DNA of 64,000 nt, taken from assembly GCF_048403405.1 (NCBI RefSeq), contig NZ_CP183129.1; one strand, 5' to 3'. Below, in pieces: positions 10,098-49,316 of the stretch (positions are counted from its first letter, which is position 1; each line of letters opens with the position of its first letter). The translations under genes were made by a program, and so were the position numbers. Under the pieces are notes generated by a model that saw nothing but the letters and a program-made list of their open reading frames with translations, was not told where the DNA came from and did not search any database. This stretch comes from Escherichia coli. Lineage in GTDB: Bacteria > Pseudomonadota > Gammaproteobacteria > Enterobacterales > Enterobacteriaceae.

Positions 10098-10192
10098 TGG
10101 CGGAAGATCACAGGAGTCGAACCTGCCCGGGACCGCTGGCGGCCCCAACTGGATTTGAAGTCCAGCCGCCTCACCGGAGACGACGATCTTCC
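10098..10192 (-). tRNA. selC: tRNA-Sec (selenocysteine tRNA, selC)
   Basis: Reverse complement of 10098-10192 reads GGAAGATCGTCGTCTCCGGTGAGGCGGCTGGACTTCAAATCCAGTTGGGGCCGCCAGCGGTCCCGGGCAGGTTCGACTCCTGTGATCTTCCGCCA, the 95-nt E. coli selC sequence including the UCA anticodon loop (CTTCAAATC) and 3' CCA. Confidence 0.97.
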
Positions 10193-33497: not shown

Positions 33498-34918
33498 TAA
33501 TCACCCCATAGTGAAGAAAAGTTACTGCTGGCTGCTGGCTGTGATACCTGCTCAGATTGCGGCAATGTCTGCGACGAAGAAGACGTTCCTCTGTCAACTG
33601 CTGAAATAACCCGCAAAGCATCATAAGCTCGACCAGAAGCAGCTTTCAGCGAATTGAACTGGTTTTCCATCTTCCGGCGCTTGGTATCAATGGTTTTTGT
33701 GGAGTCGCCAGGCTGAGGGAAATACATTTGATAATATTTTGACATTTCAGCAGGTACGATAGCTGCCCCTGTTTCCTGACGGAGTATTGCCATTATTGCG
33801 TCATTAGCATTAACAACGTATTGCTGCTCTGTTGGGCTGAGCGTTAAGTTAGCCAGCGTCCCATTACCCAAAGCATTATTAATGATCGCCACTCGCTGTG
33901 GGCTAAGCTGGTCTTTCAGTGTATCTATTGAATCAAGAGCATCCCTAACCCTGTATGCAAATCCAGCAGCTTTTTTAGCCCCTTCTGGCGACTTTTCCAT
34001 GATCTTTTGGGCTGTTGGCAAAGCTATTGGACGAAACCCATCTCCAGATATTGGCTGGTTTAGTTTTCCCTGCTCTTCACTTCCGTCTGTGTAGTATTTT
34101 GTGACAGTGCCATCATCGTTTTCTCTAACACTCATTAATTTTTTGGCGTTTGTATTAATTCCAGCCGCTGCCGCAAATGCCGCCGCCCCCTCTGGATCCG
34201 CCTTTAACATTTGAGCGTACTGATTGTAATTCTGCATTGCTGCTGTTGGTGCATATGCTGACGTTAACGCATTTGCTCGGCTAATATCCTGCCCTCTCGC
34301 CTGAAGTGCTTCGCCAGCCTGATTGCTGCGGATTGTCTCTGCCAGCCTGCCTCGCTCAATATCCCGACCTTCCATTTGATCTTTGATATTGAAATACTTC
34401 TCATGACCGAGAGAAAACAGTGCCATACTACCAGCAAGCCGCTGGAATCCCTGTGGATCATTAACATGCATTTCGGCAACAGACTCAGGAGAAATTCCCA
34501 AGCGACGCATTTCATCTTCGTTATCTGCTATGAATTTTCCAAATGCCCCAGTTCCGAGCGAAGATGCGATTTGAGCACTAGTCGCAAGATGACCAATAGA
34601 ATTTCTCTGGTCGTCATCAATAAAGCCCATCCCTTTCTGAACGCTTTCAAATTCTTCTGGATACTCAGAAATAAGACTGCGCATTTTGTTTCTGTCTCCA
34701 GACTCAAAAGCCCCGGCATATGCTTTCTGAAACTCTGATTTACGCTGTTGTTGACGTGCCTGCTGATTAATCTCAGCAACGCCTCTTAGCCCCTGTAGCG
34801 CCATTAAACCTACGTTTGGCTGCTGCTGATACTGCACAGGCTGAGGAACGGAAGAACGAGGAGCATTATCATTTTGCGGTGCCATGCTAGGCAGCCCGCC
34901 AAGTTGCCATGTCGTCAT
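33497..34918 (-). CDS. Cargo operon gene 3: hypothetical 473-aa Gln/Ala-rich protein; candidate ejection-protein (P22 gp20-like) homolog
   Basis: Translationally coupled to flanking genes (shared boundary positions 34918 and 33497); no TM segments or catalytic motifs recognised. Confidence 0.6.
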   Translation of the reverse strand: MTTWQLGGLPSMAPQNDNAPRSSVPQPVQYQQQPNVGLMALQGLRGVAEINQQARQQQRKSEFQKAYAGAFESGDRNKMRSLISEYPEEFESVQKGMGFIDDDQRNSIGHLATSAQIASSLGTGAFGKFIADNEDEMRRLGISPESVAEMHVNDPQGFQRLAGSMALFSLGHEKYFNIKDQMEGRDIERGRLAETIRSNQAGEALQARGQDISRANALTSAYAPTAAMQNYNQYAQMLKADPEGAAAFAAAAGINTNAKKLMSVRENDDGTVTKYYTDGSEEQGKLNQPISGDGFRPIALPTAQKIMEKSPEGAKKAAGFAYRVRDALDSIDTLKDQLSPQRVAIINNALGNGTLANLTLSPTEQQYVVNANDAIMAILRQETGAAIVPAEMSKYYQMYFPQPGDSTKTIDTKRRKMENQFNSLKAASGRAYDALRVISAVDRGTSSSSQTLPQSEQVSQPAASSNFSSLWGD

Positions 34919-35595
34919 TAGAATCCAAGCCCCCCAACAAGACCAATAAGCCCACCACCAATAGCCCCGGCGACATTACCTATACCCGGAACAACGGAAC
35001 CAAGTTGCGCACCCGCTAAAGCGCCTGATGCCGCCCCACCAATACCACGCGCAAGACTGGATGGCTGCTGCGCCTGACCTGCACGAATAGCGCCAAGCCC
35101 CTGCAAGAGTTGTCCGGTATTATTGGCGTAGTTTTGCCCTGCTGTTGCCTGCCCTGATGCCGCATTCATCCCGACATTTAGCAGGTTTCCATAATTTTGC
35201 ATTTGCCCACTAAGCCAATTGTTATAAAGCATGGGCGCAATGGAAGATAACTGGTTACTGGTAGCTGTTGAGCCAAGCCCCCCGGTAGCTTCTGCTGAGA
35301 CAAGGTTCTGATAACGGGCCTGATCTGCCTGTGTTTTATATAAACCAGAACCAAAGAAATCATTCGCGGCTTTATTCTGCCCTTCCAGAGTCATCAGTCC
35401 TTGCAGTTGTTGTAAAGCAGGCAATCCGACTTCTGCATACGGCTTGAGATTATTCATCACCGTATTCCACTGCTCGCGCTGCAAATCAATTGCCTGCTGC
35501 TGGGCCTTCGCCTGGGCTTTAGAGGCACCACCATCACCGCCTTTTTCGTATACGGCACGATTGAGATGTTTATGAGCTATATGGGTAATTAACAT
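34918..35595 (-). CDS. Cargo operon gene 2: hypothetical 225-aa protein with C-terminal glycine-zipper segment; candidate ejection-protein (P22 gp7-like) homolog
   Basis: C-terminus GIGGAASGALAGAQLGSVVPGIGNVAGAIGGGLIGLVGGLGF is a glycine-zipper type membrane-inserting motif; Gln/Asn/Ala-rich body; overlaps upstream gene by 7 nt. Confidence 0.6.
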   Translation of the reverse strand: MLITHIAHKHLNRAVYEKGGDGGASKAQAKAQQQAIDLQREQWNTVMNNLKPYAEVGLPALQQLQGLMTLEGQNKAANDFFGSGLYKTQADQARYQNLVSAEATGGLGSTATSNQLSSIAPMLYNNWLSGQMQNYGNLLNVGMNAASGQATAGQNYANNTGQLLQGLGAIRAGQAQQPSSLARGIGGAASGALAGAQLGSVVPGIGNVAGAIGGGLIGLVGGLGF

Positions 35596-36050
35596 TCGCT
35601 GAGTTCCTTATATTGTTGCCGTGTTAACTGATAAAGCGTTACGCCGACGGGTTTACCACATCTGATATATGCATCGGCCAGGTGACCAACACGGGTAGCG
35701 CCAAGCAAACGGATAATTGCCCGTCCGTATTTCGTGGTGTCAGGAACCATGGTGATGCTGTTAAGGAATGGTGAGTTTTCGAGAAGCCATTTGCAGAACA
35801 ATCGATGCCCTTGCAGTGCATATTCACCACGGAATCCGGGGTCGTACACCGCATGGCATTCAACAATGCTATGCCAGAAGTTACGCACTTCATGAACGCC
35901 TGTCAGCACTAATCCTTCGTAGATGCCGAGATATACCGCATCAGGCTTGATGTAGTACGTGTGCCCCGGCTCAACAATATTTTCGGTATTGCCAGGCTCG
36001 TTAAGAAAGGCCTGTAATCGCACCGGGTTATCAATAAATTTTAGTTCCAT
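35589..36050 (-). CDS. Cargo operon gene 1: hypothetical 153-aa soluble protein
   Basis: First gene of the coupled four-gene operon; several conserved-looking His/Cys (HEVRNFWH, ECHAVYDPGF); no family recognised from memory. Confidence 0.55.
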   Translation of the reverse strand: MELKFIDNPVRLQAFLNEPGNTENIVEPGHTYYIKPDAVYLGIYEGLVLTGVHEVRNFWHSIVECHAVYDPGFRGEYALQGHRLFCKWLLENSPFLNSITMVPDTTKYGRAIIRLLGATRVGHLADAYIRCGKPVGVTLYQLTRQQYKELSEC

Positions 36051-36676
36051 GCGGTGCCATCCGTTTTCACATACAGCCTGCCAGCGCCTTATCTATTAAC
36101 CCTCGTGCAATTTCATGCAGAGTTGGCGCTACTCCAATTCCTGATTTTTTACGCTGCTCTTCCTGAATTTTCTTTATCGCTTCCATTTGCTTCTCACTTA
36201 TCAATACCGGCTTTACTGAAATAGCCATAACGCCCCCTTAGAACTGTATAAAACAACAGTTATTATAGTTTCGCAAATCGCAATATTCATCATCGTAATT
36301 GCAAAATATGAAACAAATAGCACAAAAAAATGCCACCGCTCAGTAGCTGGTGGCATCGTTCTGTGTGTCAGGTTTTGACAGGTTTTTTATGGACTCTAAA
36401 AACTATATTTATGGTGTCGCATTACTCTTTACGGCAGGCGCTTTTCAGTTCTGCCCTTGCTTCTGGCTCCATTGGTAATTTGATTCGCGATCAGCTATGC
36501 GGATGGTTTGCTGAACAGGCATAACAACTTCTCAGAGGCTGTTTTTTGAACTACGAAAATTTCGTAGTGCTCACTTTCAAAAACGTCACGCCCTTGTACA
36601 CAGGATTTTACGAAAGTCTCGTAAAACACTCTCTGATGCCAGCCAGGTGTTGTGCGCATCAATTCAGTCACATTGT

Positions 36677-36787
36677 GTTGGTTCAAAATACCGTGTTGTT
36701 GGTTCAGTGTTGGTTCAATAAAAAGAATAAAATCCTTATAAAACAATACTCTTTACAAATTGAACCAACTGAACCAACTGAACCAAC
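36677..36787. repeat. Iteron array 2 (ori-like), inverse arrangement of array 1, immediately downstream of the primase gene
   Basis: GTTGGTTCA at 36677-36685, 36698-36706, 36709-36717; tandem TGAACCAAC at 36761-36769, 36770-36778, 36779-36787; internal spacer CTCTTTACAAA is the inverse of TTTGTAAAGAG in array 1. Confidence 0.8.
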
Positions 36788-36812
36788 ACCTTTTCTACGC
36801 ACATGAAGAAGC

Positions 36813-39572
36813 TCATTCTTCAGATGAGTTATAATCTCCTGGCTGGTAATTGAGTACATAAACGTTTATTTGTCGTCCCTGAATACGTGGTGATTTTCTT
36901 TGGTATCCACGACCGCTGTTTGGTGGGGTTAGCATCCCGGCTTTTTTCAACACTTCAGCAAACTGTTTTGCGTTGAAACCACATGCGATCTCCTTTTCAA
37001 ATGTGGCCGGGAATGTGTAGAAAATCATTGGGCTTTCGTCATGTTCTCCACGCTGACGGTATCCGGCTAAATCTTTGATGGGCAAATCTGCCGGGCTGTA
37101 TGGAAATGGTGCAAAACGGCTAAGCCCATAGGCATTAAGAAATGCCTCCGTTTGTTCAATAATCTGCTGATGCTCTTTGTTACCTGTGCCGAACTCGCGC
37201 AACCATGCGTTATAGCTGTGCTGTATCGCATCACGGCATGTCTGAGCATCCCAGCCTGTTACAACCTCGCCTAACAACAATGCGGCCTCCAGAATGGCAA
37301 ATCGCGCGGCTACACGGTGAACCTGCTCACCATAATCGGGTGGGATCAGGCTTCTCCATCTGCTTTCGCAATCACGAACAGTTTTAATAGCCTGTTGCTG
37401 GTGGTCTGCCAGCCATTTAATCCACTCACGCCCGGCTGCGCCATGGTGATGCTGGTAAGCGTCTTTCAGTGCGTCTGCGTGCTGTTTTCCGTTCTGGTAA
37501 TCGTGAAAGCGTACTGCTTTACTCAACGGAATATTCAGCAGTCGCACCAGTTGCCCGGCTTTGGTTTTTCGCCCGGAAGTAGCGATAAATGTTTCTAAAT
37601 CCATTTCTCCGGTGCTGATTGCCACTGTACGCCAGCGTTTTAGATCCCGGTTTCCACCATCTTTAGCGCCTTGCAGTTTCCCTACACCGTTAAATAACGC
37701 ATAGGCAGACTGTGAAACGCTGACAGGATCAGCGCCCTGACCAACTTCATCAAGCGGCATTAGTCCGTCATTGTGGGCGGCGGCCTCATTTGCCAGCCCC
37801 AGCGCGGTTCCGTACCTCGTCAGCCGCAGTAAATCAGGGTTGCCGTATAAGCTGCTCGCCACGTTTGCCGTGGTGGTCTTACCTGCGCTCGACTGCTCAT
37901 AGAAATGAATGCCGAACCCGTCAGCGCCCACCAGCCCAATCAATGGTGCTGCCAGTGCTGCGCCGATCCCGGTCATCATTGAATAGTTACCAAAGGCCAG
38001 ACGCGCCACGTTATCACGCCAGCTTTGCGCGCTCCCTGAGACGGTATATCCGGCTGCGGCTGAGCTTCTCCCGCTGAACAGCACAGGATTTTCAGGTGTT
38101 CCGATGATTTCCCCATCAGGCATGATGTACGCTCCGCATTGCCAGCCAGTGGCATGAGCAACACGCCACAATTCACGAGAGCCACTGCGTTGTAGCCAGT
38201 CTGCCAGTATTGCTCTGAGGCTGCTTTTGGTCGTGACATTTACCCCACCAGCTTTAAGTGTGCGCCATCCTTCACGTTCACCAATATCAGCCAGTGGAAT
38301 GGCAGCGGTTGTCGGCGTTTCAGAACCAAACGACAGCCAGCGAAGAATGAGATACTGGTCTTTATCGTCTCTGCCAGTACCGATAACGCTTAACGGAGAA
38401 CATAACCAGCTTTCGTTATTGATGATTTCTCCACTCTGGCTGTCAGCTCTCGGAGATACCCAATAAATACCATCCTCGCGGCTTTCTATTCTTGGTTTCA
38501 GTGGGTCGGTATCCATAACCTTAAAATCGCTTCCCTCAATGGTCTGTGGCTCCTGTTTCACGCCATTACCCTGTGGTTGGTACATTGACTTATTGAACGC
38601 TTCTGTGGCGCATTTAATGCCGTGTTTTTGGTGGTAATCATTCCAGTCTGCTTTGTGACCTGTCGGGGGTAATGCCACCCATCCAGAAACAGATAAAGCT
38701 GCTTTTTCTGCTGCTATTCTCCCCGTGTTTTGTCTTCCTTCGCTGTGGTCGTTATCCGCAGCAATGATGATTTGTGCTGAAGGAAATTTATCCCGCAGTA
38801 CCTGGGCGACATATAACAGGTTCCCGGCATCAATCGCCGCCACTGTCAGCGCCTCTGGACGAATTAAATGGGCAGATAATGCCGTTGCTAGCCCTTCTGC
38901 GATTAAGATGCTCTGTGTTGTTTCTGGTGCGTTTATGGCGTGATATGCCCCCCGCTTTGCTGAACCTGTCAGGAGTCTTTTTTCACCATGTGAGGTAATA
39001 GTCTGTGCTGCTGTGACTGCGCCGGATTTATCCACCAGCGCCAGCAACAGAGATCCATCGGGCAACACGGGGAATGTAAAATCACCTACCCCTTTCGCAA
39101 CCAGATAATCAGATTTGCCGTTTACAGCCTTTCTGCGCATGTCATCAAACTGACGGGAAAACGTATCCCGTCTTTGTTGTTCGTCCTTCTCCGCCCTTTT
39201 CAGGCGCTCCTGTTCGCGTTGCTGGCGCTCGGTTTCCAGTTGTTCCCGTTTCTGGCTGGTGGCTTCTGGTGTTTCCGTTGTCCGGTAATCAATACCCAGA
39301 ACATCAGCGGCAAGCAGCGCCGCCTCTGTTGTGTCGCAGTTATTTACGCGTTTAATTAAATCCAGCCCATCACCAGCGCCGCACTGATTACAGATGAAGC
39401 TACCGCGCCCGTTGTCATCGAACCGGAATCGATCTTTGCCCCCACATGCAGGGCAGGGAGCATGACGGCGCGGAGAGTCAGGGACATTTATGTTCAGGCA
39501 GCCCAGCACATGAGGCCAGTTGTTTTCAGACGCACTGATAACCTGACGGATAAGATCAATGTTTCGCATCAC
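36813..39572 (-). CDS. Replication primase-helicase (zinc-finger + TOPRIM + helicase-like domains; P4 alpha / PICI Pri-Rep type), 919 aa
   Basis: N-terminal Cys4 motif CPACGG...CNQCG; TOPRIM-like acidic motifs (LIAEGLATAL..., IIIAADNDHSEG); P-loop-like SSAGKTT in the C-terminal half; followed directly by iteron array 2. Confidence 0.8.
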   Translation of the reverse strand: MMRNIDLIRQVISASENNWPHVLGCLNINVPDSPRRHAPCPACGGKDRFRFDDNGRGSFICNQCGAGDGLDLIKRVNNCDTTEAALLAADVLGIDYRTTETPEATSQKREQLETERQQREQERLKRAEKDEQQRRDTFSRQFDDMRRKAVNGKSDYLVAKGVGDFTFPVLPDGSLLLALVDKSGAVTAAQTITSHGEKRLLTGSAKRGAYHAINAPETTQSILIAEGLATALSAHLIRPEALTVAAIDAGNLLYVAQVLRDKFPSAQIIIAADNDHSEGRQNTGRIAAEKAALSVSGWVALPPTGHKADWNDYHQKHGIKCATEAFNKSMYQPQGNGVKQEPQTIEGSDFKVMDTDPLKPRIESREDGIYWVSPRADSQSGEIINNESWLCSPLSVIGTGRDDKDQYLILRWLSFGSETPTTAAIPLADIGEREGWRTLKAGGVNVTTKSSLRAILADWLQRSGSRELWRVAHATGWQCGAYIMPDGEIIGTPENPVLFSGRSSAAAGYTVSGSAQSWRDNVARLAFGNYSMMTGIGAALAAPLIGLVGADGFGIHFYEQSSAGKTTTANVASSLYGNPDLLRLTRYGTALGLANEAAAHNDGLMPLDEVGQGADPVSVSQSAYALFNGVGKLQGAKDGGNRDLKRWRTVAISTGEMDLETFIATSGRKTKAGQLVRLLNIPLSKAVRFHDYQNGKQHADALKDAYQHHHGAAGREWIKWLADHQQQAIKTVRDCESRWRSLIPPDYGEQVHRVAARFAILEAALLLGEVVTGWDAQTCRDAIQHSYNAWLREFGTGNKEHQQIIEQTEAFLNAYGLSRFAPFPYSPADLPIKDLAGYRQRGEHDESPMIFYTFPATFEKEIACGFNAKQFAEVLKKAGMLTPPNSGRGYQRKSPRIQGRQINVYVLNYQPGDYNSSEE

Positions 39573-39927
39573 CGTACCCCACGTGGTCTATAGCGTTTGC
39601 GATATGGCTAACCAGCATCTGCCACTTGGTTATTCCGTAATCAGTCAGCATGCCATCATTGTTTAGCCACATATCAAATTCAGCGGTTGTCGCAAGTTTC
39701 CACTTATCGCCGTGGACAGTCCTCATTGCTGGGTACATGAATGCGCAAATCAGATCACAAACATCTGACGGCTTCAGAGATGTAGTAATAGTGCGTCCCT
39801 CTGGCGTCTGAATTGCCATTTTCTCTTCACCAGTAGAATGAAGGTTATGAATCCACACAGCACCAGCAATCTTTGCCACCTGCTCTCCGATTGCGGAGCT
39901 AAGCGCCATTTCTGCATTTTCACGCAT
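39556..39927 (-). CDS. Hypothetical protein, 123 aa (element replication/regulatory operon)
   Basis: Overlaps primase start by 17 nt and the upstream ORF by 8 nt (coupled operon). Confidence 0.5.
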   Translation of the reverse strand: MRENAEMALSSAIGEQVAKIAGAVWIHNLHSTGEEKMAIQTPEGRTITTSLKPSDVCDLICAFMYPAMRTVHGDKWKLATTAEFDMWLNNDGMLTDYGITKWQMLVSHIANAIDHVGYGDAKH

Positions 39928-40261
39928 GAGAACCTCCCGCTACAGTTGCGCCCATGTCATTAACCATGCTTTGCCATATCTCACGCCCGACGTCAGTCAA
40001 TCTGTCCTTAGTGACGCAACGATCAAGAAGCTCGATCCCCACGGTTTCCCACTGCGGGTAGAACACTTTCATGGCTGCCAGTGCGTAACTATCGATCAGG
40101 CTGCGAACGCCTTTTACTCCATTGACGATTTCCACACGTACGGCCTCTCCGTCCGCATCAATCATGAAATAGTCCCCGCCGCTGGTGGAGGTAATGTGGT
40201 TATACAGTGCTGACGCATACTTATTTGCCAGCGCATTCAGTCGGAAATTTTTAGTAATCAT
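39920..40261 (-). CDS. Hypothetical protein, 113 aa
   Basis: Co-directional, translationally coupled ORF in the small-gene operon upstream of primase. Confidence 0.5.
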   Translation of the reverse strand: MITKNFRLNALANKYASALYNHITSTSGGDYFMIDADGEAVRVEIVNGVKGVRSLIDSYALAAMKVFYPQWETVGIELLDRCVTKDRLTDVGREIWQSMVNDMGATVAGGSHA

Positions 40262-40271
40262 GGTTCCATCC

Positions 40272-40874
40272 TCAGTGCGTCACTGGTTCCGATGGCATGC
40301 CGTTTTCATTCAGTTCAGCTATAAAGCTGTTGTGAAGTTCAGCAAGCGTTTCACGACCAAATGGAGTCAGTGCTCCTTGTTCCACATCCATCATGGCTCT
40401 GTAGAAAATGATGGAGCGTTCTGTGCCAGACTCGATGCCAAAACGTTCTATCATCGCGCCCTCAATGTTGTTTGCCATAGCGAGGCGCTCTGCTACTGGA
40501 TACAGCGGCATGGCGACGATGCCGTTGGAATAAACAGCCACTTCGGAAGGATTGCCAGTATCATCAATGATGCTGACAGTGCCGTTTTCCTCTCTCATTT
40601 CCAGCATGAATACTGTTGCGATCAACCATCTCCACATAATGACGTTATGCTGTGATGTGTAATCGAAATATCCCTGGTTGCCGCCATCGGCAATAGCGAG
40701 ATGTATTGACATACCTTCATCTGGTTTATCGTCATAATCCCCGGCATCCAGACGATTTACGGCATCAATATATGAGACGGTCTCAACGCGTTCTGTCATG
40801 CCATCGTTGCTGCGGTGCATGATGTTTACGCCGTCAGGCGTTGCTTCTGCCTGGAAAGTTAAGAAATTATTCAT
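40272..40874 (-). CDS. Hypothetical protein, ~200 aa
   Basis: ORF-track ORF 40272-40979 trimmed to the internal Met (MNNFLTFQ...) because the longer reading overlaps the upstream 73-aa ORF; GAGG-type RBS. Confidence 0.45.
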   Translation of the reverse strand: MNNFLTFQAEATPDGVNIMHRSNDGMTERVETVSYIDAVNRLDAGDYDDKPDEGMSIHLAIADGGNQGYFDYTSQHNVIMWRWLIATVFMLEMREENGTVSIIDDTGNPSEVAVYSNGIVAMPLYPVAERLAMANNIEGAMIERFGIESGTERSIIFYRAMMDVEQGALTPFGRETLAELHNSFIAELNENGMPSEPVTH

Positions 40875-41088
40875 GTTTCGCCTCGCCTGAATGATTCTGT
40901 AACTCATATTTGCCCAACAATTCGTCTGCTTCCTGAATAGCTTCTGGTACGCCATTGAGCAGTGACATAACCGCGCCAATCATTAACTTGTCTCTGTTGC
41001 TGGGGCTGGCCCCTTCAAGCCAGAACCCTAAAACAGTCTGAACCTGTTCGATGCGACATTGCGCTTCAATGAGCTGGATGTTGGTCAT
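40867..41088 (-). CDS. Hypothetical small protein, 73 aa
   Basis: Coupled small ORF (overlap ATGA-type with neighbour at 41085-41088). Confidence 0.4.
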   Translation of the reverse strand: MTNIQLIEAQCRIEQVQTVLGFWLEGASPSNRDKLMIGAVMSLLNGVPEAIQEADELLGKYELQNHSGEAKHE

Positions 41089-41348
41089 TTCGCACTCTCC
41101 GCATCGATTAAACTGATATCTATCAGAGAGGTAACTTTTTGTAGCCAGCTAGTGATTACTGTCGCCTGTTCCCCTCCCACCGATGGAAGAATCTCATTCA
41201 TCACATGAACCAGACCTGTGCGCGCTCTGGTAAGCCGTTCAGTCGTGCGATCTGCAAGAGTGAATGTGTCTGGATATGGTTCTTCACGGCTCAGCAATGA
41301 TTCAATTTCCAGCTCACACGGATGACGATAAATTAAGTTGATATTCAT
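41085..41348 (-). CDS. Hypothetical small protein, 87 aa
   Basis: Coupled small ORF in same operon. Confidence 0.4.
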   Translation of the reverse strand: MNINLIYRHPCELEIESLLSREEPYPDTFTLADRTTERLTRARTGLVHVMNEILPSVGGEQATVITSWLQKVTSLIDISLIDAESAK

Positions 41349-41539
41349 TTTTCACCCCCAAGAATTACCAGCTCTGCACGGGCATCGTTAACCAAAGATG
41401 AGCACGCTTTAATCGCATCCACGACATCAGTAGCGTCCATTTCTTCAGCCGAAAGACTGACAGCAACCAGGACAGCCGCTGCTTGCTCGATTAATTGAAG
41501 TGCGGACGTAAGGCGAGGGGTATTAATTGAGTTATTCAT
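41345..41539 (-). CDS. Hypothetical small protein, 64 aa
   Basis: Coupled small ORF in same operon. Confidence 0.4.
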   Translation of the reverse strand: MNNSINTPRLTSALQLIEQAAAVLVAVSLSAEEMDATDVVDAIKACSSLVNDARAELVILGGEK

Positions 41540-42599
41540 TGGTTGCCCCCGTTTTTACTGGCATTTCGCCACCTTCCAGCAGGAAATGAACGTCACGAAC
41601 GGCGAGATCCAATATCGCGAGTAACGCCTTCAGTCTTTCGTCTCGTGAGGGAGAGTTGCTCACCAGAATGTCGTTAATCACTTCTGTCAGTGTGATGATC
41701 TGGCTTGTGCGTTCGAGGGGATCCATATGCACATCGTAGGTTTTAATCATGTGCCACCTCCATGCGGATACGACCAGCAAAAAAGCAGACGTGATCGCGC
41801 ACCAGAGAACGGCGAGCATCGCGTTCAGACTCGGCAGCAATATGATGAATTCTGGCGGTAATTGTCGGGCAATCGCGGCGAACTGCGGCGATAATCCAGA
41901 TAAATTGCGGTTTTTGGGTAGGGGTAGTAGCCAGCATGTGGCAGCCTCCATTCGATAGCATGTAACGCTACCACCGGAAACGCCAATTTCGCTGGTGGTA
42001 GCCCAGACAGGGTTGGCGTAACCGGCTCGAATGGATACCGGCGCTTCCGAAGAAGCCCCTGCCTGAGCCACCATTGATTGACAAAGGCGCTGGATTATAC
42101 ACCAACGCCCAAAAAATGGGTGAGTCAGACCTACGACATAAAAAAAGACGCTCGGCGCGTCATATGTCGCCATTCGATTTACCAGGACGCCAATCCCGGC
42201 ACCCGTTTTATGAGGTGCCTTATAACCATAAACCGTGTTGCCGCATAACGGCAAGCTCTTTTTTATGGACTCCGAAAACTCGCTATTGGAAGCACCAGAT
42301 GCACAGTACATCGCGCTCATTTCGTTAACGTCACGCGCGCGGATGAAGGTTTTTGTGGAGTCACTACGCGAGCGGAAGACATCATCTACGACCAGAAATT
42401 TTCTGGCGCAGCCGCTGACCTTCTCAATGCTAATATCATCGCCCGAGATTTCTGGTATGGTTAAGGCATCCGTTCCGACCACCAGCAAATGATAAACTTT
42501 GCTTGTATCTGCTGTATTAATGCCTGACTTTGCCGTCATATTGCTGGATTTTGGCGACATACCAGCCAGTGAAAATGTCTTCTTCTGGACGGGTATCAT
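41532..42599 (-). CDS. Hypothetical protein, 355 aa (C-terminal half of reading frame is of doubtful coding quality)
   Basis: Start overlaps the stop of the upstream small gene (42596-42599), supporting a real start; C-terminal half is Trp/Cys-rich and may reflect a frameshift or separate small genes. Confidence 0.4.
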
Positions 42600-42772
42600 T
42601 GGTTAACCTCCGCGAACTCCTTCATGAAACGCGCCAGCGGTTGTACGCATGGCGATTGATACCCGTCGCGATAAAACGTCACTCGGTTGTGAGACACGCT
42701 TTCGACAGTAACGAGTGCTCCGTGGGCATCTTTGTAGCGTTTTTGTGGTTGTGGTGTTCCTGTTGGCTTAGA
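42596..42772 (-). CDS. Hypothetical small protein, ~58 aa
   Basis: ORF-track ORF 42596-42862 trimmed to the internal Met (MSKPTGTPQ...) that overlaps the antirepressor-like gene stop by 4 nt. Confidence 0.4.
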   Translation of the reverse strand, partial: SKPTGTPQPQKRYKDAHGALVTVESVSHNRVTFYRDGYQSPCVQPLARFMKEFAEVNQ

Positions 42773-43601
42773 CATTGAGCGCCTCCAGACGCTTGGCGAG
42801 CCAGCGTTGCGACAGGCGGGTGAGTTCTCCTTTGCGCTGCTCATATTCCATGCCCATATCAATTAACGTGATATTGGTGCTTTCGAGATATGAGAGGTGC
42901 TCAAGCTGTTCTGCGTTCATATGGTCGCGAGGTTCGCCAGAATAGCCATTTATCCGCGCCCACTGCTTAGCAGTTAGCCCACCAAGAACGATACGAGAAA
43001 TCATATTGCTCTCGTTTGTGTAGTGGTGTTGCTGCGTCATTTTCCCCATCTCGGCACGGGCCATATTCAGCGCATCGCACATTGGCTTAAAGTTGTTTGC
43101 GGCACTAATACGGGCTTTTAGCTGGCGACGATAGCGGGCGGCGATTTCAGGCACGGTACGCTGTAATTCTTCCTCGCACTGGATGAAATAACGGCGGATA
43201 GCGCGACCCTGATCATTGCGTTCGATCATTGCCAGTTCTTTCGCCATTCCGACACTTAACAGATAGTCTTTGCCGGGTCTGCCAGAGTGCTTTATCTTGC
43301 TGTAAGCCGCGCCATTCGGGCTTTTCCCCAAATTTGGGGAAATTGTTTTATGGACTGAGTAATCGTGCCCAATGGTGAAGTCATATTCAGAGATGCGATC
43401 AGTGATCCATGTAGAGAAGTCTTTTCCCACGCCCAACGCTTTGTGTAACGCTTTTGCGCTAACAATATTGGTTTCACGCCCACCGATATGACCAGGAATA
43501 ACCGGGACAATTGCGGCAAATTCATTACCGTTAATTGTGCCCAGAGAGGCGTTCAGATGAGGGGCGGCCTCAGAAATTAATCTGCTTTTTTCGATGTTCA
43601 T
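42768..43601 (-). CDS. Phage antirepressor-like protein (AntA/KilA-type N-terminal domain), 277 aa
   Basis: N-terminal region ...IVSAKALHKALGVGKDFSTWITDRI... resembles AntA/KilA-N antirepressor domains; C-terminal coiled-coil; typical of satellite/prophage regulatory modules. Confidence 0.55.
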   Translation of the reverse strand: MNIEKSRLISEAAPHLNASLGTINGNEFAAIVPVIPGHIGGRETNIVSAKALHKALGVGKDFSTWITDRISEYDFTIGHDYSVHKTISPNLGKSPNGAAYSKIKHSGRPGKDYLLSVGMAKELAMIERNDQGRAIRRYFIQCEEELQRTVPEIAARYRRQLKARISAANNFKPMCDALNMARAEMGKMTQQHHYTNESNMISRIVLGGLTAKQWARINGYSGEPRDHMNAEQLEHLSYLESTNITLIDMGMEYEQRKGELTRLSQRWLAKRLEALNV

Positions 43602-43613
43602 TTTCAGTCTCCG

Positions 43614-44045
43614 TTAGGCGGCGTTAAACGCGTTCGGGTAGAGTTTCAGAATGTCGGCAATTTCCTGCTGAGAAAGTCCGTTGTGATCATTTATGTTCGC
43701 AAGATGGTTAACATGAGTGATCACTTTCAGAACATCACCACGGCAGGAGAAACGGTAGCGAAGGTGTGTTCCGATACCATCAGGATTCTTTTCGTCGATA
43801 CGCTCCAGAGTGATTCCAAGCTGGCGTTCTAACTCTGTTGCATAGTTACGACCAGAAGACAGACGGCAGTAGCGAAGAATGTCATTTTCTGTCCATCCCT
43901 CTATACCAGTACGCAGCATATAGACTCTGGCACGATGCTTTTTCGGTGTGCGCTTTGGTGCTTGAAGGGATTTTGTCAGGGGCGTAACATCAGATACGCG
44001 AATATCTGAATTAGCCGCCTGTAATGGGCGGTTTTTCTTTTCCAT
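43614..44045 (-). CDS. Hypothetical basic protein, 143 aa
   Basis: Immediately downstream of alpA, start/stop abut (44045); Lys/Arg-rich N-terminus. Confidence 0.5.
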   Translation of the reverse strand: MEKKNRPLQAANSDIRVSDVTPLTKSLQAPKRTPKKHRARVYMLRTGIEGWTENDILRYCRLSSGRNYATELERQLGITLERIDEKNPDGIGTHLRYRFSCRGDVLKVITHVNHLANINDHNGLSQQEIADILKLYPNAFNAA

Positions 44046-44248
44046 CAGGCCACCTTCCCGCGGCGTTCTGCCAGCCAGTTGTGAATCTCAACCGCATCAA
44101 ACGCAGTTATTTTTTCTCCCAGCTTTACCGGACGTGGTAGTGAACCGTTTCTTACTTTACGGTCGATGGTGGATACACTAACGCCCAGCAATTCAGCCAG
44201 GCGGAAGCGTCTGATATAGCCTTTTGTAGGAATAGTGTCGGTGTTCAT
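44045..44248 (-). CDS. alpA: AlpA-family transcriptional regulator (prophage CP4-57-type excisionase-like HTH)
   Basis: 67 aa; MNTDT..IRRFRLAELLGVSVSTIDRKVRNGSLPRPVKLGEKITAFDAVEIHNWL is the canonical AlpA/MerR-like HTH pattern. Confidence 0.85.
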   Translation of the reverse strand: MNTDTIPTKGYIRRFRLAELLGVSVSTIDRKVRNGSLPRPVKLGEKITAFDAVEIHNWLAERRGKVA

Positions 44249-44311
44249 GCTTCCCGTAACCTCTTAGCGATAGTTGTTGCTTCGTTACGGGAGGAAGTAT
44301 CTGTACATATA

Positions 44312-44346
44312 TGAACAATAAAAAGGCACAGTAATGATACTGTGCC
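44312..44346 (-). terminator. Intrinsic terminator after the 321-aa cargo gene
   Basis: Perfect 8-bp stem GGCACAGT/ACTGTGCC with 6-nt loop, followed on the minus strand by TTTTTATTGTT. Confidence 0.6.
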
Positions 44347-44362
44347 TGAATAGTTAGCTACT

Positions 44363-45328
44363 CTACCCCTTACCGTTGGCGGCAGCACGTAAGTGTCTCA
44401 AAATCACATCTTCATTTGTGATTGCTAACGGTGGAATTTCGTCTTTATGAGCCACTATGCAATCCCGCCACTTCTCAGGGCTTATTTCTTTCTTTTTGCC
44501 ACGGCATTCATCAGGATACTTTGACAAAAGATATATTGCAGATTTGAAAAGTTTTTCCCTGTTTTCAGCATGTCTCTCGGCATTATGGTTGCTATTTTTT
44601 ATTTCAGGTATTAGTTCCTGTTCTACCGCCATTTCGTATCGTTTTTTGCTCTTAGCTGCGTCAAAACTTCCATTAACCTTTGCGTCATGAAGGTATTCTA
44701 AATCAGCCTTTGTTATATAAATGTTTTTATCTGACAGGCTACTCAGGTGAATTTGGGAACTTTGCATTTTGAATTTATATAGATCACAATCAAATGTTGC
44801 TTCAAGTCGCACATATGGTTCTCCACATTCTTGTGAATGATAATGTCGTGTTGTTCTACCGCGTACACGCAACAATCCACATGCAATTGATTTTCTTACA
44901 ATAAAAGAGTTTTTGCCAATTTGTTCAAAAACATTTTTATTGTCGCTGTCTTCAACTGTCAGTGGTTTATGTGCATAAAATAGCTCATAAGCACCGCTTT
45001 CAGATGCTGGGATATAAACTTCGTTGCTTGCGCTGGTAATAAGAAAAGGAAATGTAAACCTTACTTCTTCTGGGTACATAAGTAATAAATCAGTTATAAA
45101 ATTAGCATCTTTTTTGAAGTGGATGGTGGCATCAGATTCAATGAAATCAAGAAAGTCAGCATAGACATAAAAGTCTATATGTAGTCTATCTTTCCAATGC
45201 CATATATCATCAATTTCACAATTTAATAATTTTGATGCTCGCTCTATCGTGCAGTAGTCCAAAGGTGGAATACCTGATTCCTGCCATAAATTTCTATGCA
45301 CCACTGTTGTTTCATGAGAGTCGTTCAT
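44363..45328 (-). CDS. Hypothetical AT-rich cargo protein, 321 aa, between integrase and alpA
   Basis: Markedly AT-rich codon usage compared with flanking int and alpA; own terminator; no motif recognised. Confidence 0.6.
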   Translation of the reverse strand: MNDSHETTVVHRNLWQESGIPPLDYCTIERASKLLNCEIDDIWHWKDRLHIDFYVYADFLDFIESDATIHFKKDANFITDLLLMYPEEVRFTFPFLITSASNEVYIPASESGAYELFYAHKPLTVEDSDNKNVFEQIGKNSFIVRKSIACGLLRVRGRTTRHYHSQECGEPYVRLEATFDCDLYKFKMQSSQIHLSSLSDKNIYITKADLEYLHDAKVNGSFDAAKSKKRYEMAVEQELIPEIKNSNHNAERHAENREKLFKSAIYLLSKYPDECRGKKKEISPEKWRDCIVAHKDEIPPLAITNEDVILRHLRAAANGKG

Positions 45329-45423
45329 TGCGTCACCTTTTACGCTGCGCCTTATTTTGTGATTGAGCCAGGCGGTAAGGCTTCCCGCTTTTCGCCCCGT
45401 CGAGCTAGGCTCAATCTATTCAG

Positions 45424-46683
45424 TTAGTTCGCCCTTCTGAGAGGCGTTACGTTGTAGTCTTTTCCGCTTTCCAGTGCCACCAGCAGATCAGCCCACTGTG
45501 CCAGTGCTGCTTTACGCTCATCAAAATACTGATGGCGGTTATAAATCCCCTCTACGCCCTTAATGCGATGATTGAGGCATCGTTCCGCCACGACAGGATC
45601 AACACCCAACGCTGCTAAATGAGTACGTGCGGTGCGTCGGAAGTCGTGAATCGTGAAATTAGGCACATCCGGCATTTCGGCGCGAACCTTAGCCAGTGCT
45701 ACGGGCAAAGTGCTTTCCTGAATATGTGGGATCATTCTGTTTTGCATCTTCCTGGCTGGAAGCACCCATGCGCTATTACATGAAAAGGTGTGTAGCTCTC
45801 TCAACCATTCAACGGCTGGGGAAGGTAGAGGTATATCAATAGGGTCTCCGTTTTTGCTGCGTTCTTCCGGCAAATGCCATACCGCACCATCTAAATCAAA
45901 CTCTTCCCATCGTGCGGCGCATAACTCCATCTTACGAACGCATAGTGCCAGCAATAGCTTAAATGTCAGTTCGTTCTGGCGGCTGAATCCTTTTGCGGTG
46001 CGCATAGCCTCGAATAGCCTGATAAGCTCATCGCGAGTTAGCCAACGGTCGCGGGAAACCTCTTTACCACCAGCATCAGATACTTCAAACGCTGAACAAG
46101 GGTTTATCTCCAGAGCGTGGCGTTTTATCCCGTAGTCAAAGATACGGCGTGTCCAGCGTAATACATCTGTTGCTATCGTTGGTGCTCCTCGGTCAACGAT
46201 ACCTTTCAACATGTCGTCAATGTGGCGTGGCTTAACGTCCTCTACCTTCATATGCCCAATGCAGGGGTTAATATCCTTATCAATTCTCCGGCGAAGGATA
46301 TCGGGATGTTTCCATCTCGGAAGTATCTGGCGCTCGAAGTATTCGGAGGCCAGATCTGAAACACGCATGGCGTTTTTCTCAGCCTCCATTTTTGCCAGTG
46401 CTTCAGCTTTTCGTTCCTGTTTCTCTGCTGCTACGTCATAGCCAAGAGCAACTCTGGCTGACAGCTCTTTTGCTGTTTCTCTGGCTTTTGATAGTGACAG
46501 TTCGGAGTAAGAGCCTATAACCATAGCCCGCTGCTTTCCTGCGAGCTTATAGCGGAATCGCCAGAACGGGGCTGTGTAGTTTTTGGGGTAGCAAATATAA
46601 AGGCCGTTGCCGTCTGCCTTGCCATCAAATCTGTCTCCCGCCTTTATCCATGCGCGGATCTGCATATCTGTGAGTTTTGGCAT
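45424..46683 (-). CDS. Tyrosine recombinase, P4-type integrase, 419 aa
   Basis: From MPKLTDMQIRAWIKAG...GNGLYI (P4-integrase N-terminal arm-binding pattern) to C-terminal catalytic region with ...HDFRRT...LNH..., ending ...GIYNRHQY (tyrosine nucleophile context); adjacent to right-end repeat. Confidence 0.9.
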   Translation of the reverse strand: MPKLTDMQIRAWIKAGDRFDGKADGNGLYICYPKNYTAPFWRFRYKLAGKQRAMVIGSYSELSLSKARETAKELSARVALGYDVAAEKQERKAEALAKMEAEKNAMRVSDLASEYFERQILPRWKHPDILRRRIDKDINPCIGHMKVEDVKPRHIDDMLKGIVDRGAPTIATDVLRWTRRIFDYGIKRHALEINPCSAFEVSDAGGKEVSRDRWLTRDELIRLFEAMRTAKGFSRQNELTFKLLLALCVRKMELCAARWEEFDLDGAVWHLPEERSKNGDPIDIPLPSPAVEWLRELHTFSCNSAWVLPARKMQNRMIPHIQESTLPVALAKVRAEMPDVPNFTIHDFRRTARTHLAALGVDPVVAERCLNHRIKGVEGIYNRHQYFDERKAALAQWADLLVALESGKDYNVTPLRRAN

Positions 46684-46740
46684 TGCGAATACCTGAATAT
46701 CGAATATGGGTGTGTACATAAAGCAATGTACATGAAAGTC

Positions 46741-46764
46741 ATTATGTACACCTCTATGTACACG
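46741..46764. repeat. Right-end direct repeat (putative attR core / integrase-binding repeats)
   Basis: ATTATGTACACCTCTATGTACACG; 22/24 identical to 28810-28833; additional TGTACA motifs at 46711-46740. Confidence 0.55.
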
Positions 46765-46808
46765 CATATTGTGCGCTTTATTGCGTCGTTATGATAGCTC
46801 ATGATAAC

Positions 46809-46846
46809 AAAAAAGCCCGACATTTCGCGGGCTTTGTGGTTTTTTG
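46809..46846 (-). terminator. Intrinsic terminator downstream of yicC
   Basis: GC hairpin AGCCCG...CGGGCT flanked by A-run and T-run on opposite sides (bidirectional-looking). Confidence 0.55.
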
Positions 46847-46871
46847 CTGCTTGGTGATTTTTACTGATAGC

Positions 46872-47735
46872 TTATTCGATATTCTGGATCTGCTCGCGCA
46901 TCTGCTCAATCAACACTTTCAGCTCGATGGCAGAATTCGTCACTTCGGCATTGATAGATTTCGACGCAAGAGTGTTCGACTCGCGGTTGAACTCCTGCAT
47001 CATAAAGTCCAGACGACGACCAACCGCTTCTTTTTTCTTCAGAATGTTGTAGGTCTCTTTGACATGCGCTTCGAGGCGGTCCAGTTCTTCGGCAACGTCA
47101 ATTCGTTGTGCCAGCAGAACCAACTCCTGCTCCAGACGGTTGTTTTCCAGTTGCACCTGAGCATCTTCCAGCTTCGCGACCAGACGCTCACGTTGCCATT
47201 GCAGGATTTCCGGCATATGGGCGCGGACTTTGACCACTTCGGCGGTGACGCCTTCCAGACGCTGCTCGATCAATGCTTTCAGCGCCTGACCTTCGGTTTC
47301 GCGTGCGACGATAAAGTCGTCCAGCGTACCATCCAGCGCCGCGAGAATTTCAGCGGCAATCGCGTCGAGATCCTGCTCCTGGGCTGCCATTACGCCCGGC
47401 CAGCGCAGAATATCAACCGGATTTATTTCCCCTTCGTCGCTCTGCATTTTTACCCAGTTCGCGGCGGTTACCAGCTGTTTAGCCAGTTTTTCGTTGAGGA
47501 TCAGCTCACCTTGTGCGCTAACATCTGGTTCATAGCGCAGGGTACATTCCACTTTACCGCGCGTCAGGCGAGAACGAATACGCTCGCGAACGACAGGTTC
47601 AAGGCTACGGAACTGCTCCGGCAGACGAAAGTAAGTTTCCAGATAACGCTGGTTTACCGAGCGCATTTCCCAGGTTGCGCTCCCCCATTCACCCTTGATT
47701 TCACGCCGGGCGTAGGCGGTCATACTGCGGATCAT
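46872..47735 (-). CDS. yicC: Stress-induced protein YicC (YicC-like family)
   Basis: 287 aa MIRSMTAYARREIKGEWGSATWEMRSVNQRYLE...; conserved neighbour of rph. Confidence 0.9.
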   Translation of the reverse strand: MIRSMTAYARREIKGEWGSATWEMRSVNQRYLETYFRLPEQFRSLEPVVRERIRSRLTRGKVECTLRYEPDVSAQGELILNEKLAKQLVTAANWVKMQSDEGEINPVDILRWPGVMAAQEQDLDAIAAEILAALDGTLDDFIVARETEGQALKALIEQRLEGVTAEVVKVRAHMPEILQWQRERLVAKLEDAQVQLENNRLEQELVLLAQRIDVAEELDRLEAHVKETYNILKKKEAVGRRLDFMMQEFNRESNTLASKSINAEVTNSAIELKVLIEQMREQIQNIE

Positions 47736-47861
47736 AGACGTTCCTGTTTATAAAAGGAGAGGTGGAAGGATTATAGCCATCGATGCCTTGTCAGGATAGG
47801 AATAACCGCCGGAAGTCCGTATAATGCGCAGCCACATTTGTTTCAAGCCGGAGATTTCAAT

Positions 47862-48578
47862 ATGCGTCCAGCAGGCCGTAGCAATAATCAGGTGCGTCCC
47901 GTTACCCTGACTCGTAACTATACAAAACATGCAGAAGGCTCGGTGCTGGTCGAATTTGGCGATACCAAAGTATTGTGTACCGCCTCTATTGAAGAAGGCG
48001 TGCCGCGCTTCCTGAAAGGTCAGGGCCAGGGCTGGATCACCGCAGAGTACGGCATGCTGCCACGTTCTACCCACACCCGTAACGCGCGTGAAGCGGCGAA
48101 AGGTAAGCAGGGTGGACGCACCATGGAAATCCAGCGTCTGATCGCCCGTGCTCTTCGTGCGGCAGTAGATTTGAAAGCGCTGGGTGAGTTCACTATTACG
48201 CTGGACTGCGACGTGCTTCAGGCTGATGGTGGCACGCGTACCGCTTCGATTACGGGTGCCTGCGTGGCGCTGGCAGATGCGCTACAGAAGCTGGTGGAAA
48301 ACGGCAAGCTGAAAACCAACCCGATGAAAGGGATGGTAGCCGCAGTTTCTGTCGGGATTGTGAACGGCGAAGCGGTTTGCGATCTGGAATACGTTGAAGA
48401 CTCTGCCGCTGAAACGGACATGAACGTGGTGATGACTGAAGACGGGCGCATCATTGAAGTGCAGGGGACGGCAGAAGGCGAGCCGTTCACCCATGAAGAG
48501 CTTCTCACCTTGTTGGCGCTGGCCCGAGGGGGAATCGAATCCATTGTAGCGACGCAGAAGGCGGCGCTGGCAAACTGA
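47862..48578 (+). CDS. rph: Ribonuclease PH (full length, 238 aa)
   Basis: [39 protein letters not shown]...; reading frame intact through the C-terminus. Confidence 0.95.
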
Positions 48579-48585
48579 TTTTTAA

Positions 48586-48611
48586 GGCGACTGATGAGTC
48601 GCCTTTTTTTT
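48586..48611 (+). terminator. pyrE attenuator (intrinsic terminator in rph-pyrE intercistronic region)
   Basis: Hairpin GGCGACT-GATG-AGTCGCC followed by eight T residues, ~30 bp upstream of pyrE start. Confidence 0.85.
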
Positions 48612-48643
48612 GTCTGTAGAAAAGTAAGATGAGGAGCGAAGGC

Positions 48644-49285
48644 ATGAAACCATATCAGCGCCAGTTTATTGAATTTGCGCTTAGCAAGCAGGTGTTAAAG
48701 TTTGGCGAGTTTACGCTGAAATCCGGGCGCAAAAGCCCCTATTTCTTCAACGCCGGGCTGTTTAATACCGGGCGCGATCTGGCACTGTTAGGCCGTTTTT
48801 ACGCTGAAGCATTGGTGGATTCCAGCATTGAGTTCGATCTGCTGTTTGGCCCTGCTTACAAAGGGATCCCGATTGCCACCACAACTGCCGTGGCGCTGGC
48901 GGAGCATCATGACCTGGACCTGCCGTACTGCTTTAACCGCAAAGAAGCAAAAGACCACGGTGAAGGCGGCAATCTGGTCGGTAGCGCGTTACAAGGACGC
49001 GTAATGCTGGTGGATGATGTGATCACCGCCGGAACGGCGATTCGCGAGTCGATGGAAATTATTCAGGCCAATGGCGCGACGCTTGCTGGCGTATTGATTT
49101 CGCTCGATCGTCAGGAACGGGGGCGCGGCGAGATTTCGGCAATTCAGGAAGTTGAGCGTGATTACAACTGCAAAGTGATCTCTATCATCACCCTGAAAGA
49201 CCTGATTGCTTACCTGGAAGAGAAGCCGGAAATGGCGGAACATCTGGCGGCGGTTAAGGCCTATCGCGAAGAGTTCGGCGTTTAA
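48644..49285 (+). CDS. pyrE: Orotate phosphoribosyltransferase PyrE
   Basis: 213 aa from [38 protein letters not shown]...; PRPP-binding motif [13 protein letters not shown]. Confidence 0.95.
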
Positions 49286-49292
49286 AGAAACT

Positions 49293-49316
49293 CGCCGGAT
49301 GAAAAGTCATCCGGCG
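49293..49316. terminator. Bidirectional terminator between pyrE and slmA
   Basis: 10-bp stem CGCCGGATGA/TCATCCGGCG with 4-nt loop between convergent genes. Confidence 0.6.

Follow-up and report, generated by a model that had tools for sequence, protein, structure and literature searches.

At the locus described here, rph and pyrE follow one another on the plus strand of Escherichia coli DNA, with a hairpin and a run of T residues in the short space between them. The stretch analysed, hereafter referred to as the window, is 64,000 nt long. The features of the locus are as follows.

46872-47735, minus strand: yicC, the divergent neighbour upstream of rph (Pfam)
47820-47825, plus strand: TATAAT hexamer between yicC and rph, a perfect -10-type match and candidate promoter element of rph-pyrE (read from the sequence)
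47862-48578, plus strand: rph, encoding RNase PH, 238 aa plus TGA (open reading frame list and direct translation)
48528-48532, plus strand: intact G5 homopolymer run, the place of the G loss in MG1655 (rph-1) (MG1655 alignment)
48547-48549, plus strand: out-of-frame TAG, the premature stop of the K-12 rph-1 frame, which is not read in the window
48576-48578, plus strand: rph stop codon TGA, 5 nt (UUUUU) before the attenuator stem
48584-48605, plus strand: pyrE attenuator hairpin, AAGGCGACU / loop GAUG / AGUCGCCUU (terminator scan; same as in MG1655)
48604-48611, plus strand: attenuator U-tract, T8, with its first two T taking part in the lowest stem pairs
48631-48636, plus strand: Shine-Dalgarno-like GAGGAG, 7 nt before the pyrE ATG (read from the sequence)
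48644-49285, plus strand: pyrE, encoding orotate phosphoribosyltransferase, 213 aa (TIGR00336, Pfam, RefSeq start)

The rph frame was found to be open from the ATG at 47862 to the TGA at 48576-48578, a length of 717 nt, and the original prediction that Rph reads through to 238 aa was thereby confirmed. The product scored 380.8 bits against the NCBIfam equivalog model for RNase PH (TIGR01966, cut-off 141.5), with residues 2-236 matched to model positions 1-235 of 236. Both Pfam domains, RNase_PH (PF01138, residues 10-140) and RNase_PH_C (PF03725, residues 157-222), were detected above the gathering score, and the structure of the Pseudomonas RNase PH (1r6l) aligned end to end with residues 2-237 (E = 3.7e-104). 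A 1,001-nt stretch of the window is 100% identical to DNA of strain CFSAN061763, where it is annotated as yicC, rph and pyrE; the RefSeq label for rph in this identical DNA is WP_001247093.1, a common RefSeq protein that is also found in O157:H7 and other strains. Judged from its sequence, the RNase PH encoded in the window should be active. The intergenic region between yicC and rph (47736-47861) was the same as that of MG1655 throughout in a pairwise alignment, and no full promoter was called by a consensus scan at the TATAAT hexamer at 47820-47825.

The claim that the rph frameshift of K-12 MG1655 is absent from this DNA had been put forward together with an alignment to MG1655 rph-pyrE as the means of checking it. 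We carried out this pairwise alignment over 925 nt (NC_000913.3). The sole indel was one extra G in the window, which has GGGGG at 48528-48532 where MG1655 has GGGG, and no frameshift was revealed, as had been claimed. Because one G is deleted from the run, the MG1655 gene yields a translation of 228 aa that ends in ARGESNPL* and is annotated as 'truncated RNase PH'. The K-12 rph-1 allele (MG1655, W3110, EMG2), which is reportedly to be attributed to Jensen 1993, occupies the same locus and is followed by the same attenuator as in the window, but its Rph is altered from residue 224 and ends at 228, whereas that of the window continues to 238. Neither the loss of a G from G5 nor the 228-aa ARGESNPL product that marks rph-1 was found in the window. 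When the G was put back into K-12 rph, the translation again had 238 aa and differed from the window's product in two places: residue 138 is V in K-12 and A in the window, and residue 216 is I in K-12 and T in the window. These are the two non-synonymous changes among 19 single-base substitutions in rph. From 48533 to the pyrE start the window matches K-12 MG1655 base for base, so the regulatory element that was studied experimentally in K-12 is unchanged in the window. Passages of PMC2784333 and PMC9997739 connect the 1-bp deletion in rph-pyrE of MG1655 with lower orotate phosphoribosyltransferase or low pyrE expression, and the latter describes the rph frameshift as common to EMG2, MG1655 and W3110, and as absent from the K-12 strain WG1.

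The sequence that follows rph reads TGA-UUUUU-AAGGCGACU-GAUG-AGUCGCCUU-UUUUUU-G. The terminator scan returned a stem of 9 pairs, 5 of them G-C, with a 4-nt loop and then a T-run, and the G-C core is formed by 48586-48592 with 48597-48603. pyrE lies on the same strand directly 3' of rph, and the two are separated by this G+C-rich hairpin and its U-tract. Folded alone (48579-48612), the hairpin reached -14.7 kcal/mol versus a shuffle mean of -3.5 (z = -6.16), and none of 200 dinucleotide shuffles was as good; in an 86-nt context the fold was not significant (z = -1.45), the signal being diluted relative to the hairpin alone. Minimum free energy folds of 48-nt segments contained spurious outer pairs (GAU...GUC) and were dropped for the measurement of distances.

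The rph-pyrE spacer is 65 nt long. The hairpin begins 5 nt beyond the rph stop, and its U-tract ends 32 nt short of the pyrE ATG, base for base as in MG1655, which is the place where they had been expected; the interval originally marked out, 47862-48611, runs exactly from the rph start to the last U, because T8 ends at 48611. Five unpaired nucleotides thus separate the TGA from the stem. Counted from the stop codon's first base to that of the stem, the distance is 8 nt for the true TGA versus 37 nt for the rph-1 TAG, the rph-1 translation stop being 29 nt earlier than the wild-type stop. No promoter-like site was detected by the promoter scan in the 65-nt spacer, including the portion between the U-tract and the pyrE ATG. 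A search of Rfam gave no family for an rph-pyrE attenuator at the gathering score or at E <= 1; the matches with E <= 1 at the attenuator were all sub-threshold and were to the terminator ends of sRNA families. The pyrE product scored 240.8 bits against TIGR00336 (cut-off 106.8), carries the Pfam domain Pribosyltran and differs from that of MG1655 by one substitution, G61S; its start agrees with the RefSeq annotation. Beyond pyrE, a 10-pair G+C-rich hairpin (CGCCGGATGA...TCATCCGGCG, 49293-49316) lies between the convergent stops of pyrE (49285) and slmA (49322), and the scan called a terminator there for the minus strand alone.

Conservation of this arrangement was examined in Enterobacterales. 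A DNA-pattern scan for the conserved pyrE N-terminus yielded 120 loci from distinct species, and the 118 species in which rph was located upstream of pyrE made up, with the window, a comparison set of 119 loci, all of which keep the rph-pyrE gene order. The gap between the rph stop and the first paired base was 2-7 nt in every one of the 119 loci, and was 4 or 5 nt in 97. The stem had at least 8 pairs in 116 of the 119, the 9 nt that follow the G-C core held at least six T in 118, and a T-run of at least 6 nt directly followed the core in 116. Budvicia diplopodorum was the exception, being without a classic terminator. The spacer from the rph stop to the pyrE ATG ranged from about 57 to 200 nt across the same loci. 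Because the part of the spacer 3' of the hairpin varies so widely, the distance between stop and hairpin appears to be the quantity under constraint. Rph had 238 aa in all 102 species in which the full gene could be read, and AGGAG or GAGGAG preceded the pyrE ATG in the orthologous spacers, as judged by eye without a count.

The stem type of the window was the commonest, being present in 30 of the 119 loci. When 97 distinct sequences from stop to terminator were aligned without guidance (MAFFT, then RNAalifold), the consensus was weak, with 6 pairs, since hairpins with 3-nt loops were misaligned against those with 4-nt loops. We replaced this run by a hairpin finder and by counts on 54 distinct hairpins aligned by their invariant core, GCGAC/GUCGC. 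In these hairpins, four stem positions exchange standard pairs through changes on both sides; for example, G-C, A-U and G-U were counted 43, 6 and 5 times, and U-A, C-G and G-C 30, 4 and 4 times, with no mismatches in the pair counts, which is in part by construction since the finder extends only standard pairs.

The site of the G-run was also compared, and a run of at least five G was present in 98 of the 118 species. In Kluyvera genomosp. 3 YDC799 (CP022114.1), rph has GGGG in place of GGGGG at the same site (about 90 nt upstream of pyrE, which is at 4240 of the extracted locus) and acquires the same ARGESNPL* tail as rph-1; this missing G reflects either slippage that occurred separately or an assembly error in the homopolymer. 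The same single-G loss in YDC799, together with the G-run of at least five in 98 of the 118 species, hints that G5 might be a recurrent slippage site that yields rph-1-like alleles with low pyrE, the window representing the 'on' state of a mutable site. We consider this reading very unlikely; it concerns the site in general, and there is nothing unusual about the window itself.

The frequency of the intact allele was surveyed in 5,426 complete E. coli genomes, in 5,424 of which the rph-pyrE region was found. A 60-mer of MG1655 spanning the deletion had an exact match in 167 of the 5,426, the two exact matches listed being MG1655 and J53. The corresponding 61-mer of the window was exact in 1,012 genomes, with most of the others one to three bases different, and 168 genomes fell in the 90-95% identity band, which corresponds to the four-G allele. 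The K-12 frameshift is thus carried by about 167-168 genomes. These band counts are indirect, as a -1 frameshift that arose separately outside K-12 would be counted with the one-base variants. Two members of the 90-95% band among the matches listed (LIM and CY34) had a 60-nt record span and genomes of K-12-like size (4.62 Mb). The variants with one to three differences appear to be substitutions rather than indels, because the full-length hits among the matches listed span 61 nt. The intact rph allele is the normal state in E. coli, present in almost all natural strains, and is common across Enterobacterales; the one-base defect belongs to the K-12 laboratory lineage.

For the attenuator, the 91-nt stretch 48560-48650 was exact in 4,561 of the 5,424 genomes; in 17 genomes this search gave no match that covered at least 80% of the query. 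With the 1,001-nt query, four of the matches listed were 1 nt short, and three of them were inspected for a hidden rph frameshift. This possibility was rejected for all three, since each has an intact 717-nt rph and has lost the base in the region of the hairpin and U-tract. The strains in question (E. coli DDG220, O157:H7 strain 2149 and 2017.15.01CC; positions 880-915 of the extracted loci) carry one-base attenuator variants: two have T7 for T8, and one has GUCGC-U8 for GUCGCC-U8, a C of the 3' arm having been lost. In E. coli EC556 (NZ_AP027440.1), an IS200C element (880-1655 of the extracted locus, with tnpA at 1056-1514) interrupts the spacer directly behind the U-tract of the attenuator and ahead of the pyrE ribosome-binding site.

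The window shares with the E. coli rph+ pyrE attenuator system the gene order, the 238-aa Rph, the 65-nt spacer, the hairpin AAGGCGACU-GAUG-AGUCGCCUU, the U8, the Shine-Dalgarno sequence and the pyrE start, and nothing of substance in the window is different from that operon. The attenuator of E. coli pyrE is reportedly the work of Poulsen, Bonekamp and Jensen in the 1980s; the rph-pyrE feature is thus already known, and nothing about it is new. The pyrBI leader attenuator of E. coli follows the same logic, in that, according to a passage of PMC7818426, a ribosome close to the polymerase stops the terminator hairpin from forming when low UTP slows the polymerase. pyrBI, however, has a dedicated short leader peptide and reiterative transcription, whereas the 'leader' of pyrE is rph, a full-size functional gene.

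The anatomy of the segment, its identity with K-12 and its conservation were observed directly in this work; a response to UTP and occlusion of the stem by the ribosome would be expected from the identity with the K-12 element and from the literature. Transcripts begun upstream of rph would reach pyrE only when RNA polymerase reads through the attenuator. Scarce UTP would slow the polymerase, so that the ribosome translating rph would be close behind; having arrived at the TGA at 48576-48578, the ribosome would cover or unwind the base of the stem 5 nt further on, the hairpin would not form, and pyrE would be transcribed. With ample UTP, the polymerase would outrun the ribosome, the hairpin would form, and transcription would end at the U-tract. 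A ribosome at a stop codon protects about a dozen nucleotides 3' of the A-site codon, and the distance of 5 nt between TGA and stem is within its reach. On that basis, only a ribosome halted at the wild-type stop would overlie the base of the stem. Because G5 is intact, the ribosome would come within footprint distance of the hairpin in the window, and the polarity defect of K-12 rph-1 would consequently not apply. These considerations agree with statements in the literature: a passage of PMC2784333 (citing Jensen 1993 and Bonekamp et al. 1984) holds that proper regulation of pyrE needs the rph stop to be near the attenuator loop, translation being coupled to attenuation; the role of the distance between stop and attenuator is also raised in part of PMC9997739; and pyrE and pyrBI are placed under UTP-sensitive pausing and attenuation in a passage of PMC7818426 (citing Turnbough & Switzer 2008).

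We conclude that the segment is very probably the wild-type E. coli rph-pyrE bicistronic operon, with a full-length RNase PH and, in its 65-nt spacer, a rho-independent terminator, the pyrE attenuator, that would mediate UTP-sensitive attenuation coupled to translation. No sequence feature that contradicts this reading was found in the window. One could envisage instead that the hairpin is the constitutive terminator of a monocistronic rph and that pyrE is transcribed from a promoter of its own, given that the structure in isolation is a textbook intrinsic terminator and that its sub-threshold Rfam matches were only to terminator ends of sRNA families. The 32 nt between the U-tract and the pyrE ATG, however, offer no promoter-like site, and the gap of 2-7 nt between stop and stem in 119 loci, kept while the downstream spacer varies, points to a constrained distance between translation and terminator. 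In K-12, moreover, genetics connect pyrE expression with where the rph stop lies, as reported in a passage of PMC2784333 that cites Jensen 1993 and Bonekamp 1984, and we regard a separate pyrE promoter as very improbable.

The bicistronic operon could also be wild-type in outline and yet defective, with an open frame that encodes an inactive Rph or with an attenuator disabled by point changes. Residues 138 and 216 of Rph and the G61S substitution in PyrE do differ from K-12, but the A138 of the window is shared by 102 of 102 other species, the V being peculiar to K-12, and T216 was present in most of the C-terminal tails listed (by eye, uncounted). Since the protein is the common RefSeq entry WP_001247093.1 with a full-length TIGR01966 match of 380.8 bits, and the attenuator is the same as that of K-12, a defect of this kind is extremely improbable. 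Homopolymer length errors, for their part, are common in long-read assemblies, and the GGGG of Kluyvera YDC799 may be a real mutation or such an error; G5 might by the same token be a miscall that conceals a frameshifted strain. Against this stands the exact 61-mer with G5 in 1,012 E. coli genomes, the five-G allele being present in thousands, and the four-G strains among the matches listed were of K-12 type (MG1655, J53) or of K-12-like genome size, 4.62 Mb (LIM, CY34). At three variable positions close by, in addition, the window departs from K-12, and two of these differences are synonymous. A miscalled G-run is barely conceivable.

Elsewhere in the window, an 18.1-kb integrase island (28744-46871) lies between dinD and yicC, exactly at the 3' end of yicC (its stop codon), and the empty site was seen in CFSAN061763. 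The annotated features of the island are listed below.

31392-33497: 700-aa open reading frame, no family match
33497-34918: Inj_translocase (P22 ejection-like)
34918-35595: gp7-like (P22 ejection)
35589-36050: DUF2824 (P22 ejection-like)
36813-39572: TOPRIM/DUF927 primase
41991-42078: C4 antisense RNA (Rfam)
42141-42218: isrK RNA (Rfam)
45349-45415: int-alpA RNA (Rfam)
45424-46683, minus strand: tyrosine integrase

Ash and AntA proteins are also encoded in the island, and its genes resembling those for phage P22 ejection proteins are unusual for a P4-like element. A 24-nt repeat (ATTATGTACACC..TATGTACACG) is found near both ends (28810-28833 and 46741-46764). PADLOC gave no defence-system match for the seven island open reading frames submitted. 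The integrase-yicC junction was present in about 300 of the 5,426 E. coli genomes; the island in its entirety was found in 96, with 100% identity in NZ_OZ040716.1. A few kb from selC, the tRNA-Sec gene (10098-10192), genes were noted that encode a tip protein of type III secretion, a translocator resembling SipB and a chaperone of the TPR class (553-5615); they may resemble the ETT2-associated eip cluster of E. coli. On the other side of the rph-pyrE locus, a JUMPstart RNA element (56197-56235; Rfam RF01707, 55.2 bits) precedes the LPS core operon, which starts at 56285 (rfaQ/waaQ in the matching strain), and is ordinary for that locus.

For the rph-pyrE segment itself, the finding has little import beyond correct annotation. 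The mild pyrimidine limitation that is typical of K-12 MG1655 and W3110 is not to be expected in this strain, and its RNase PH should be active, which is relevant for comparisons of growth or of tRNA processing with K-12.
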